The notes below the pieces were generated by a model. That model was not told the origin of the DNA. It saw nothing but the letters and a program-made list of their open reading frames with translations, and made no database searches. A stretch of 64,000 nt of DNA from an uncultured Oscillospiraceae bacterium. GTDB lineage: Bacteria; Bacillota; Clostridia; Oscillospirales; SIG627. The stretch covers positions 15,356-79,355 of the forward strand of contig CAZLEX010000001.1 in NCBI GenBank assembly GCA_964558655.1, given 5' to 3'. A program made the position numbers and the translations under genes. Below are positions 28,327 through 37,582 of this stretch, piece by piece (the first letter of the stretch is position 1; the number at the start of each line of letters is the position of its first letter).

Positions 28327-28384
28327 CTTTTAAGGTCTTTGAAAAATTTCAAAGACTTTTTTAAAAATTGTTTTCCTCATTACT

Positions 28385-28425
28385 TGTGGAAAACCCTTGA
28401 AAAAAAAGCAATTTCATGATATAAT
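28385..28425 (+). promoter_or_regulatory. dnaA promoter with adjacent DnaA box
   Basis: TGTGGAAAA (28385-28393, one mismatch to TGTGGATAA), then TTGAAA, 17 nt, extended -10 TATAAT (28420-28425). Confidence 0.75.
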
Positions 28426-28547
28426 AAATATAATAAATGTAGGAAACGAATATATTGCGGTATTTTTTAATATTTTCGTACAAAAATTTATTTTTTAATA
28501 TATCAAATCAATTTATAAGATAATAAAAATATAAAAGGATAACTAAT

Positions 28548-29924
28548 ATGGATCCCAGAGAAGAAGTTTTATCTTGTGTTCAAAATTTAATACATGAAAG
28601 CGGCGATTTTACTCAAGCTACATATAATCTTTGGTTCAGAGATTTAAAAATAGAAAGCTTAACCAAAACGCAAGCTATATTGAGCGTTAATTCAGCTTAT
28701 AAAGCGGAAATAATTACCGACAGATATCTCTCTGTTTTAGAACATTATTTTGAAGAAGCACTTGGTTTTCATATTGATGTATGTATTGATATAATGCAAG
28801 AAGACGATAATTATTCCAAAAGTACAATTAAACTTATAAAAACCGAACTTTCGGATCACTCAAAAACAATTGAAGAAAAAGAAAACAGTCCGGTATTTTT
28901 AAAATATAATCCTGAATACACATTTGAAAATTTCATAGTAGGAAATACAAATAAATTGGCTCAAGCCGCTTGCCGTGCAATAGCTGAAAATCCGGATCAT
29001 CACTACAATCCGTTATTTATTTACGGGGCTTCAGGACTTGGAAAAACTCATCTTTTATATGCAATTACAAATCATATACTTATAAACAGACCTGATGCAA
29101 ATATCGTATATGCACGAGGAGAAGAATTTACAACAGAATTGATAAATTCTCTTTCTAAAAAAATTCCTATGCAGTATTTTCGTGACCGTTACAGAAAAGC
29201 AGATGTCTTATTAATAGACGATATTCAATTTATTGCCGGAAAACCTTCAACTCAAGAAGAATTTTTCCATACTTTCAATACTTTGTACGATGAAAAAAAG
29301 CAAATAATTTTGGCATCGGATCTCCCTCCGAAAGATATCAAAAATTTAGAGGAAAGACTCATAAGCCGTTTTTCTTGGGGACTTATAGTAGATGTTCAGC
29401 CTCCGGATTTGGAACTGCGTATAGCAATATTAAAATCAAAAGCAGAAATGATGAATATCAACATAGATGATAATGTTATAACTTATATTGCAGACAATAT
29501 AAAAAACAATATCAGACAGCTTGAAGGTGCCATAAAACGCTTAAAAGCAATGTCATATTTAAATGATACAAAAATAACAATGTCAGTTGCAAAAGAAGCT
29601 CTTAAAGATTTTCTTTCGGAAAATGCATCTACCGGAGTAACAATCGATCAAATATTTGAAATTGTTGCAAACCACTATAATATTTCGGTAGAAGATATGA
29701 GAGGCAAAAAACATCTTAAAGAAATTACAACGGGACGCCATGTTACAATCTATATTTTAAGAACAATAACAGAACTTTCTCTCAACGATATTGGAAAATA
29801 TTTTGATATGCATCATACATCGGTACTTTATGCCGTCAACAATATTACCGAAAATTTGAAAAATGATCCAAAACTTGAGTTTGAAGTTTCATCTATAATC
29901 AGAGAAATAAAAGAAGGGCATTAA
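28548..29924 (+). CDS. dnaA: Chromosomal replication initiator DnaA
   Basis: YTFENFIVG, YNPLFIYGASGLGKTHL, LLIDDIQF, IRQLEGA, HHTSVLYA. Confidence 0.98.
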   Translation: MDPREEVLSCVQNLIHESGDFTQATYNLWFRDLKIESLTKTQAILSVNSAYKAEIITDRYLSVLEHYFEEALGFHIDVCIDIMQEDDNYSKSTIKLIKTELSDHSKTIEEKENSPVFLKYNPEYTFENFIVGNTNKLAQAACRAIAENPDHHYNPLFIYGASGLGKTHLLYAITNHILINRPDANIVYARGEEFTTELINSLSKKIPMQYFRDRYRKADVLLIDDIQFIAGKPSTQEEFFHTFNTLYDEKKQIILASDLPPKDIKNLEERLISRFSWGLIVDVQPPDLELRIAILKSKAEMMNINIDDNVITYIADNIKNNIRQLEGAIKRLKAMSYLNDTKITMSVAKEALKDFLSENASTGVTIDQIFEIVANHYNISVEDMRGKKHLKEITTGRHVTIYILRTITELSLNDIGKYFDMHHTSVLYAVNNITENLKNDPKLEFEVSSIIREIKEGH

Positions 29925-30219
29925 CGGTTCTGTCAAAAAAATGTGGATAAAAATGTTAATCCGTGTGAAAAAAATTAAAGCTGTGCAAATTTAATTTTTT
30001 CATAAAAAACGGTTGTAAATATCGATCATGTAAATTTACAAAAATATTTAAACATTTATTTGACATTAAAAATACCGAAAATAAACTGTATATGACACAT
30101 TTTTGTGTTTTACACAATTCTGACAGTTACTACTAATACTACTAAATATAAAAATATATTATATTAAATTATTTTTGATAAAAAAACAAATTTAAAATTT
30201 TGTCAGAGGAGAAAATTTT
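29925..30219. other. oriC (dnaA-dnaN intergenic): DnaA box, DnaA-trios and AT-rich unwinding region
   Basis: Perfect TGTGGATAA at 29942-29950; weaker boxes at 29964 and 30108; TAC-TAC-TAA-TAC-TAC-TAA at 30128-30145, followed by an almost pure A/T tract. Confidence 0.85.
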
Positions 30220-32677: not shown

Positions 32678-34726
<2,049 letters not shown>

Positions 34727-34734
34727 AATTTTTA

Positions 34735-34962
34735 TGTGAAAAAACAAGACAAACAATAGTTTTCCACAACCTGTGGAAAACTATGTTGAAAACTTTTGTT
34801 GATTAAAAATACATAAAAAAAAATAAACAGTTTTATCTTTGTTTCGGAAAAGTCAGCAAATAAAGGCACATTTTTTAAAGTGTAATAAATTTTAAAAAAA
34901 TAACAAAATTTTTCAAAACACTTTTTCAAACATGAAACTCACAAAAATACATATGTGGAAAA
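34735..34962. promoter_or_regulatory. DnaA-box cluster between gyrB and gyrA
   Basis: One-mismatch boxes at 34760-68, 34772-80 and 34954-62; two-mismatch boxes at 34735, 34784 and 34797. Confidence 0.75.
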
Positions 34963-34993
34963 CTTGTTGGAAAAATGTAAGAAAGGTAAATTA

Positions 34994-37582
34994 ATGGATA
35001 TCAACACAGAAGGACAAAATATACTTCATGTAGAGATTAATAAAGAAGTAAAACGATCTTATATTGAATATGCAATGTCAGTTATAGTTTCCCGTGCACT
35101 TCCCGATGTACGCGACGGTTTAAAACCGGTACATCGCAGAATTTTATATTCCATGTATGAAGATAATTTAACACATGATAAACCGTTTCGTAAATCGGCA
35201 ACTACAGTAGGTAATGTGCTCGGTCACTATCACCCTCACGGAGATGCCGCAGTTTATGATTCAATGGTTCGTCTTGCTCAACCGTTTTCATTGCGTTATC
35301 CGCTTGTTGACGGTCACGGAAATTTCGGTAATGTTGACGGTGACGGAGCTGCAGCATACCGTTATACAGAAGCAAGAATGTCAAAAATTGCCTCTGAAAT
35401 GCTTACCGATATAGAAAAAGATGTTGTGAATTTTTCTCCGAACTTTGATAATAAACTTAAGGAACCAGATGTTTTACCTTCAGGTTTTCCAAATCTTTTG
35501 GTTAACGGAAGTGTCGGTATTGCCGTCGGTATGGCAACATATATTCCGCCTCATAATTTGTGCGAAGTAATAGACGGTGCAATTTATCTTATGGAAAATC
35601 CGAATTGTGAAATATTTGATATTATGCAGTTCATTAAAGGTCCTGATTTTCCGACATATGCGACAATTTACGGTACATCGGGTATTAAACAGGCTTACCT
35701 TACCGGAAAAGGTCATGTTATGGTGCGTGCAAAGTATCATATGGAAGAACATCATTCTAAGAAAAGTATTGTGTACACTGAAATTCCTTATCAAGTTAAC
35801 AAATCTAATTTGGTTAAAACAATTGCCGATCTTGTAAATGATAAAAGAATAGAAGGAATTTCCGACATTAGAGATGAATCCGGCAGAAACGGTATGCGTA
35901 TTGTCGTTGATTTAAAGCGTGATGCAAATGAGATGATAGTTATAAATCTTCTTTATAAGTATACTCAATTGCAGGATACTTGTGCAATGAATATGTTGGC
36001 ACTTGTAAACGGAGAACCGAAAACCCTTAATTTAAAACAAATACTTTATTATTATATTAAACACAGAGAAGAAGTTGTCACAAGACGCATTACTTTCGAT
36101 TTAAACCGTGCAAAAGCGAAAGAGCATATTTGGCAAGGATATAAGATAGCACTTGACAACATAGATGAAGTAATAAAAATAATCCGTGCTTCAAAGACAG
36201 TTGCGGAAGCTAAACAAGCTCTTATTTTACGCTTTGAACTTACAGATGTACAATCACAGGCTATTGTAGAATTACCGCTCGGAAAACTTTCTTCTATGGA
36301 AGTTGACAATATACTTGCGGAATTAGACAGATTAATGAAGCTTATAGCCGAACTTGAAGAAATTCTTTCCGATGAGACGAAAATTTTCGAAATCATTAAA
36401 GAAGAGATGCTTGAAATAAAGCGTCGGTACGGTGATGAAAGAAGGACATCAATTGAAGAAGTTGAAGACGATATAGTTCTTGAAGATTTGATAGAACGCC
36501 ATAAGTGTCTTATTACTACAACTCATGACGGTTATATTAAGCGTATACCGGTTGATACATATGAGTCCCAAAATCGCGGAGGTAAAGGCGTAAACGCCAT
36601 GAAGACGAAAGAAGAAGATTCTGTTAAAGATATATTTGTATCTCACAGTCATAACTATTTGTTTATGTTTACTTCTTTAGGGCGTCTCTATATTAAAAAA
36701 TGCTATCAAATTCCGGAAGGAACCCGTACATCAAAGGGCACTCATATAAACAATATTTTACCTCTTTCCGAAGGAGAAAAGATTACCGCTTTTATTTCGG
36801 TTGCAAAAATCAATACAGATGAAGTGCTTGTAATGACAACGGAAAAAGGAATGATAAAGCGTTGTCCGCTGTCTTCTTTCCGTCATATTCGTAATAAAGG
36901 TATAATAGCAATTAAATTAAATGATGATGATAAGTTGTTATTTGTAAACAAAACCGACGGAAACAGCGAAATTTTTATTGCAGCATCAAACGGACAAGCA
37001 TTAAAATTTTCCGAAAAGCGTGTGCGTGTGATGGGGCGTACTTCAAGAGGTGTTAGGGCAATTAAACTTGAAACAGGAGAAAAAGTTGTCGGATCTCTTG
37101 CAATCAAGCCGAATGAAAACGGCGAATATGAGAGAATGCTCTTGACTTTAACCGAAAACGGTTTCGGAAAACGATGTGATTTTAAATTGTTTGCTGAAAA
37201 AAATCGTGGCGGTAAGGGTATGAGATGTCACAAACTTACTGAAAAAACAGGTAGTTTAGCGGGAATTGAAGCGGTTGAAGATACTGACGATGTTATGCTT
37301 ATGACAGACGGCGGAATGCTTATCAGAACCGTTGTAGAACAGATTTCGGTAAGCGGAAGAAGTGCTTCAGGTGTAATTGTGATGAGACTTAACGGGGTTT
37401 CAAAAATAATAGGATTTGAGAGAATTAAGCGTGAAGAAGACGCAGAAAAGGAAGCTCTTGAAGAAAACGACGGGGAAGAACTTGAAATTGTCGAAGATGA
37501 TATTGATGATGTAGAAGAAGATATTCAAGATACAGACGAAGATATTACGGATGACGAAAATGAGGAAGAATCCGAAGAATGA
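34994..37582 (+). CDS. gyrA: DNA gyrase subunit A
   Basis: [29 protein letters not shown], GyrA-box QNRGGKG, acidic tail. ATG 34994 follows GAAAGG. Confidence 0.98.

Follow-up and report, generated by a model that had tools for sequence, protein, structure and literature searches.

A cluster of predicted DnaA boxes conserved between gyrB and gyrA in uncultured gut Clostridia

Why should an AT-rich gap crowded with DnaA-box-like sequences lie between the two genes of DNA gyrase? The question arose from a preliminary description of the window, which is the whole stretch of 64,000 nucleotides analysed here from an uncultured Oscillospiraceae bacterium (NCBI GenBank assembly GCA_964558655.1, contig CAZLEX010000001.1, positions 15,356 to 79,355 of the forward strand). 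Clusters of DnaA boxes outside the origin tune initiation and neighbouring genes in Bacillus subtilis, where they occupy variable positions, and little is known of them in Clostridia. The comparative sequence analysis described below gives a probability of roughly two in three that the gyrB-gyrA gap holds a cluster of DnaA boxes maintained by selection, of the non-unwinding kind found in B. subtilis, with predicted DnaA binding and probable repression of gyrA. We infer the binding of DnaA itself, the sign and size of any effect on gyrA, and any effect on the timing of initiation.

The genes around the gap form a run that lies entirely on the + strand, and all of them match NCBIfam models: rlmH, a phosphopantetheinyl transferase gene, dnaA (28548-29924), dnaN, recF, remB, gyrB and gyrA. 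The features of interest within this run are as follows.

30108-30190, + strand: unwinding module of the origin, between dnaA and dnaN (box, 10-nt spacer, DnaA-trios, AT-rich stretch)
32678-34726, + strand: gyrB, DNA gyrase subunit B (NCBIfam NF004189/TIGR01059, 974 and 932 bits, above both cut-offs)
34727-34993: gyrB-gyrA intergenic gap with the DnaA-box cluster, 267 bp, 22.8% GC
34735-34743, - strand: DnaA box TTTTTCACA, outlying and species-specific, not kept in the genus alignment
34756-34784: palindrome ATAGTTTTCCACA-ACC-TGTGGAAAACTAT, two DnaA boxes set head to head, whose 13-bp arms enclose a 3-nt loop
34760-34768, + strand: DnaA box TTTTCCACA, left arm of the palindrome, in the conserved block of the 12-species alignment
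34772-34780, - strand: DnaA box TTTTCCACA, right arm of the palindrome, in the same conserved block of the 12-species alignment
34784-34792, - strand: third box of the distal module, TTTTCAACA (one mismatch), which is TTTTACACA in 9 of the 12 genus members
34793-34953, + strand: variable AT-rich spacer, presumed site of the gyrA promoter, with weak sigma-70-like matches only
34954-34962, - strand: proximal DnaA box TTTTCCACA, ending 32 nt before the gyrA ATG, kept in the closest relative (G006)
34965-34974, - strand: decayed proximal box TGTTGGAAAA, with a 1-nt insertion; the closest relative (G006) has a clean TGTGGAAAA
34994-37582, + strand: gyrA, DNA gyrase subunit A (NCBIfam NF004043/TIGR01063, 1141 and 1110 bits)

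The preliminary description had spoken of a 267-bp AT-rich gap with six box-like sites, and these were found where it had placed them: four match TTWTNCACA, three of the four being strict TTWTCCACA, and two are degenerate. Its inverted pair proved to be the palindrome listed above, the close spacing that it had remarked upon resolves into starts 12 bp apart in both the distal set (34760, 34772 and 34784) and the proximal set (34954 and about 34966), and the box that it had put about 30 nt before gyrA is the last good one before the ATG at 34994. The gap is also, as it had claimed, richer in good boxes than the dnaA-dnaN gap, with three strict and four relaxed boxes against one strict and three relaxed. 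Two sub-sites can be told apart. The distal one, about 30 nt past the gyrB stop codon, is a three-box module that reads box(+), 3 nt, box(-), 3 nt, box(-) with a 12-bp period, and the proximal one consists of one to three boxes in the last 100 nt or so ahead of the gyrA ribosome-binding site, with some 100-160 bp of freely drifting AT-rich DNA between the two. A hidden small gene seems unlikely, as the sole ORF in the gap, a 65-aa minus-strand frame at 34732-34929, crosses the AT-rich spacer, which is only 55% identical between species.

Chance or base composition was ruled out as the source of the boxes by shuffling and by a genome-wide scan. With dinucleotide-preserving shuffles of the 267-bp gap (n = 20,000) as the chance model, the four relaxed boxes stand against a mean of 0.19, and none of the 20,000 shuffles reached four; the three strict boxes stand against a mean of 0.027, and a fraction of 5e-5 of the shuffles reached three. 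Four boxes were found in only one of 439 equally AT-rich 267-bp segments of the genome. The gap is the densest DnaA-box cluster of the 1.68-Mb assembly (98% complete) and the only place where three of the genome's 64 strict boxes fall within 300 bp. Two more three-box clusters, at C42:3166-3253 and C14:36290-36554, lie within long ORFs and look like chance or coding repeats. What is found in the gap, namely several consensus boxes in non-coding DNA, far over chance, is what characterizes a cluster of the B. subtilis type.

The conservation of the boxes could be followed in the genus to which this bacterium belongs (g1), where the gyrB-gyrA gap was recovered from 12 species, all of the genomes being metagenome assemblies. 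These species are not close, the DnaA of most of them sharing only 56-58% identity with that of this genome. All 12 nevertheless have a gap of 248-334 bp, with 21-30% GC and 3-7 boxes. Pairwise identity between the species is 89% in the distal block near gyrB vs 55% in the spacer, and the alignment of the block, just past gyrB, reads GTTTTCCACA-NNN-TGTGGAAAAC-TNT-GTGTAAAACT. The second conserved part is made up of the boxes that immediately precede the gyrA ribosome-binding site. All 12 species have boxes there, two TTTTCCACA and one TGTGGAAAG in most of them and TGTGGAAAA boxes in this genome and in the relative nearest to it. In these two genomes the proximal (+) boxes of the other species have decayed and only the (-) boxes by the ribosome-binding site are left, so the arrangement of the proximal sub-site is not fixed.

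A similar plan was found in genus g5 of the same family. Its gaps are GC-richer and cannot be aligned with those of g1, and they show the same succession of distal boxes, pair and proximal boxes: tandem boxes straight after the gyrB stop codon, followed by the inverted pair and, 30-55 nt ahead of gyrA, by two TGTGAAACA boxes. Of 20 species of g1 and g5, 18 retain the inverted pair at its 3-nt spacing with at most two changes per arm, the sequence of the loop being free. The gyrB-gyrA gaps of g4 and g6 also carry boxes. The preliminary description had proposed that conservation in the gyrB-gyrA gaps of relatives be checked, and the boxes turn out to have been kept while their flanks drift, in 12 of 12 g1 species and in three further genera (g4, g5 and g6). 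A search for the exact inverted pair, TTWTCCACA-N3-TGTGGAWAA, found it in 23 of 51 genomes of the family, with 0 for a reversed-pattern control, and all the matches fetched from g5 (8 species) lie between gyrB and gyrA.

Not every member of the family has the cluster. A gene for a PfkB-family hexose kinase (TIGR03168, 242 bits) lies between gyrB and gyrA in g2, g3, g7 and g8 and in the neighbouring family f6, and no DnaA boxes were found between gyrB and gyrA in any of these. The loci with the kinase gene are L121, L123-L126 and L129, and gene and cluster never occur together in the sample. The cluster is dispensable in close relatives, as four genera of the family have the kinase gene and no boxes, and there has been more than one switch between the two states; they are interleaved, with modest support, in a GyrB tree built from one protein. 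Further away, the gyrB-gyrA gaps of other families of the order measure 28-88 bp and were found to hold no boxes, and of 236 genomes from the order that do not belong to the family, just 8 have the exact inverted pair. The nearest named relatives of this GyrA are from Oscillospiraceae, Acutalibacteraceae and Lawsonibacter (66-74% identity), which makes the host probably an uncultured member of Oscillospirales. A general gyrA-upstream feature was ruled out with 80 diverse gyrA loci, which have a median of 45 bp between gyrB and gyrA: 76 had no relaxed box in the 300 bp ahead of gyrA, four had one and none had two.

Whether these 9-mers are DnaA boxes for this organism can be judged from its own origin. 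An origin unwinding module comprises DnaA boxes, DnaA-trios and an AT-rich stretch (Richardson 2019 PMC6669920, Pelliciari 2021 PMC8287927), and the criterion used here was a DnaA box, no more than 16 bp of spacer, three or more DnaA-trios and then an AT-rich stretch. The module of the window has the box TTTTACACA (30108-16), a 10-nt spacer and the DnaA-trios TTACTACTAATACTACTA (30127-44). Ten g1 genomes share this layout, usually as TTTTCCACA followed by a second, degenerate box, a short spacer, trios of the CTACTACTA type and ATATAT-rich DNA. The 9-mer that adjoins the DnaA-trios in the dnaA-dnaN gaps of g1 is TTTTCCACA, the same as that of the palindrome arms, and the three-box module itself is part of an origin in a sister family, which identifies the motif as the DnaA box of this organism itself. 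A functional DnaA-box cluster is supported because the boxes are conserved as the spacer drifts and because their 9-mer is the origin box of g1. The DnaA of B. subtilis reads TTATCCACA-like boxes. Several other observations were made around dnaA. The gene is preceded in this genome by rlmH and the phosphopantetheinyl transferase gene, not by rpmH-rnpA (28327-28547). About 160 nt upstream of it, at 28371-28393, an imperfect inverted pair, TTTTCCTCA-ttact-TGTGGAAAA, is a candidate autoregulation site. Past the dnaA stop codon, at 29942-29972, there are tandem (-) boxes at intervals of about 10-12 bp (TGTGGATAA, then TGTTAATCC in degenerate form, then TGTGAAAAA), which resemble the tandem boxes after the gyrB stop codon in g5.

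The sister family with the module at its origin is f21, in which TTTTCCACA-N3-TGTGGAAAA-N3-TGTTGAAAA lies in the dnaA-dnaN gap, right past the dnaA stop codon (near position 1501 in L158, L159 and L160). Several members of the family of this bacterium have the module a second time, downstream of tsaD (also known as gcp) and before rex (L141, L142, L145, L148 and L152). The loci of the tsaD-downstream cluster, which occurs in f21 as well, also include L157, and this genome has a decayed copy of it outside the window (G000 contig C24:14079-14210). The module starts a few tens of nucleotides past a stop codon in all three settings, that is, after dnaA, tsaD and gyrB. The gcp-ydiF gap of B. subtilis is one of six non-origin clusters that are bound by DnaA in vivo (PMC3245932), which supports the view that the motif belongs to DnaA and suggests that at least one cluster position, the one downstream of tsaD, may be common to Bacilli and Clostridia.

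How might a cluster of this kind act on gyrA? Rising levels of active DnaA would fill the distal and proximal sub-sites cooperatively. DnaA at the proximal boxes would then sit on the gyrA promoter or just downstream of it and would reduce gyrA transcription by occluding or blocking, and the distal module, about 165-200 bp upstream, could cooperate by looping and hinder read-through from gyrB. The cluster would also double right after initiation and take up DnaA beside the origin, since the unwinding site is 4.6 kb away. With a gap of 250-330 bp, gyrA must have either a promoter of its own or read-through from gyrB, and the spacer probably carries such a promoter. No convincing + strand sigma-70 promoter was called by the scan in the window's own gyrB-gyrA gap, and the candidates in the gaps of relatives are weak AT-rich matches. 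Most g1 species have a -10-like hexamer or a conserved CTAAAAT directly against the first proximal box, some 90-100 nt ahead of the ATG, and a last proximal box that abuts the gyrA ribosome-binding site. Every species of g1 and g5 has boxes between 20 and 100 nt ahead of the gyrA ATG, where the promoter matches are weak, and boxes about 20-60 nt from it occur in g1, g5 and g6 and in one of the two g4 species. Both the titration site and the DnaA control of gyrA that the preliminary description had suggested would fit these data. It is because the boxes persist by the start of gyrA in both g1 and g5 that we lean towards an effect in cis on this gene. The fullest form of such control, in which DnaA on a two-part operator gates gyrA, uncouples it from gyrB and sets the level of GyrA according to active DnaA, is put forward tentatively, as a possibility with rather less than an even chance of being right.

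Among the other explanations, the one that survives best is that the boxes act purely as a sink, which tunes the timing of initiation by titrating or inactivating DnaA near the origin, has no meaningful effect on gyrA and occupies the gap as a tolerated site. The clusters of B. subtilis do act on initiation, work best near the origin and vary in position between species (PMC3245932), and the distal module is both the best conserved part of the gap and one that recurs downstream of tsaD and dnaA whatever the next gene may be. A strong gyrA promoter is, moreover, not predicted in the window's gap. However, in g1 and g5 the boxes have kept their place directly ahead of the gyrA ribosome-binding site even though the gaps of these genera cannot be aligned, a position for which a sink has no need, and DnaA bound within a gap of 250-330 bp would affect either the gyrA promoter or read-through, whichever is used. 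An effect on initiation alone is considered unlikely.

A second possibility is that the cluster is one arm of a split origin, needed for initiation, which would loop to the dnaA-dnaN module and replace the dnaA-upstream cluster of Bacillus and Clostridium. There is precedent for origins in two parts, which are known from B. subtilis, C. difficile and H. pylori (PMC3479198, PMC7561715). The genomes compared have 0-1 boxes upstream of dnaA and 2-4 in the dnaA-dnaN gap, and the boxes between gyrB and gyrA equal or exceed those of the dnaA-dnaN gap in 8 of 10. Upstream of dnaA, in the region at 28327-28547 of the window and its equivalent in relatives (L111-L128 and L031-L057), this genome and other Oscillospirales-like genomes have 0-1 boxes vs 3-6 in Clostridium-type relatives. 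Yet the related families, which likewise have 0-1 boxes there, have short and box-free gyrB-gyrA gaps, so the cluster is neither a relocated second origin arm nor compensation for a lost dnaA-upstream cluster; a single-part origin looks, from these sequences, to be the norm in the order. Four genera, half of those in the family, do without the cluster. DnaA-trios were found in no gyrB-gyrA gap: 20 stretches downstream of gyrB were scanned and none had a run of four or more NTA triplets, and runs or near-runs of such triplets are present in dnaA-dnaN gaps. A second unwinding site between gyrB and gyrA was rejected on the same grounds, the canonical module being in the dnaA-dnaN gap. That module lies 4.6 kb upstream of the cluster, the very distance from the unwinding element given in the preliminary description. 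The satellite origin element that it had also entertained is disfavoured by the missing trios and by the related families that have neither boxes upstream of dnaA nor a gyrB-gyrA cluster, and a split origin is judged very improbable.

The palindrome might, finally, be read without DnaA, as a stabilizing or terminating hairpin at the 3' end of gyrB or as the operator of a dimeric repressor, with its likeness to DnaA boxes incidental. It folds well as RNA (-17.8 kcal/mol, z = -4.2), begins about 30 nt past the gyrB stop codon and has a loop of fixed length and varied sequence. Against an intrinsic terminator, the stem is followed by no U-tract on the + strand, and the scan called a terminator on the - strand only, where no gene ends. 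An Rfam search of the gap gave no match above threshold, the sole hit being a plant microRNA model (18 bits vs a threshold of 249 bits, E = 0.66). The same 9-mer also occurs singly and in both orientations elsewhere in the gap and beside the DnaA-trios of the origin. One-sided changes within the 9-mers of the arms, among 21 species with a recognizable pair, fall at the W or N position of TTWTNCACA in 4 of 4 cases; they break the pairing exactly at the free positions of the box, a pattern that fits two boxes read separately. Both arms changed together in one species only (G007), where the L009 gap has the same change in each arm (TTTCCCACA and TGTGGGAAA) and the palindrome stays perfect. Such a paired change might be due either to selection for a hairpin or to correction by template switching inside the palindrome, and template-switch mutation can produce paired palindrome changes without selection. 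An extra role as a gyrB 3' hairpin, beside the predicted DnaA binding, is possible; as the whole explanation, which would leave the other boxes of the gap unexplained, it is the least probable of all.

The preferred reading, a selected DnaA-box cluster that probably represses gyrA, would make the locus a clear comparative case in uncultured gut Clostridia, in which the strongest predicted DnaA site of the genome lies between the gyrase genes, not at the origin, and has been kept there across at least four genera. Should DnaA control gyrA, the level of the initiator and the supercoiling of the chromosome would be directly wired together, and gating of gyrA by DnaA would complete a feedback loop that ties initiation potential to the negative supercoiling needed for opening of the origin. 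To our knowledge, a link of this kind between initiator level and supercoiling by way of gyrA has not been described before. The three-box module, with its inverted pair, third box, 12-bp period and place past a stop codon, also offers a practical search pattern for DnaA sites in the order.

The locus can be set beside several known systems. The datA site of Escherichia coli, 470 kb from oriC, promotes hydrolysis of DnaA-bound ATP in an IHF-dependent manner. It has some five DnaA boxes, located at a distance from the unwinding site, and lowers initiation potential; the clustering of boxes is alike here, but nothing in the gyrB-gyrA gap indicates an IHF site or the datA mechanism. The likeness to an origin unwinding module lies in the box sequence, which is the same, and in the three-box module that the sister family has in its dnaA-dnaN gap; unlike an unwinding module, the gyrB-gyrA gap has no DnaA-trios beside any box. 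DnaA also represses promoters with boxes in the leader, as is the case for dnaA in B. subtilis and E. coli and for ywlC and yydA in B. subtilis. Much as in those leaders, the boxes here may lie between a promoter and the downstream start codon, ahead of which they are kept across genera, with the difference that the promoter is only predicted and that the target would be gyrA. A literature search for DnaA boxes at a gyrA promoter found no paper on the subject, and the nearest case is that of Borrelia burgdorferi, whose DnaA binds the divergent gyrB-dnaA region in gel-shift assays (PMC9879097).

The closest resemblance in kind, however, is to the non-origin DnaA-box clusters of B. subtilis, which are found at gcp-ydiF, yydA-yycS, ywcI-vpr, ywlC-ywlB, thdF-jag and yqeG-sda (Okumura et al. 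2012, PMC3245932). The same authors noted that the positions of such clusters differ between species and tend to be near the origin, and the gyrB-gyrA position is not among the DnaA-bound regions published for B. subtilis (PMC3245932); nor are gyrA, gyrB or gyrase mentioned in the main text of the B. subtilis in vitro DnaA-binding study. The gyrB-gyrA cluster differs from those of B. subtilis in being inside the gyrase gene pair, in having fewer boxes (4-7), in being a predicted binding site and in its stereotyped build, with the inverted pair and third box on a 12-bp period just past a stop codon. What it shares with them are intergenic consensus DnaA boxes close to the origin and separate from the unwinding site, and the B. 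subtilis clusters, too, are mostly near the origin, and some of them control the neighbouring gene. The likeness extends to one position, as this bacterial family has, downstream of its tsaD (= gcp), a cluster that corresponds in position to gcp-ydiF of B. subtilis and is built from the same module as the one between gyrB and gyrA.
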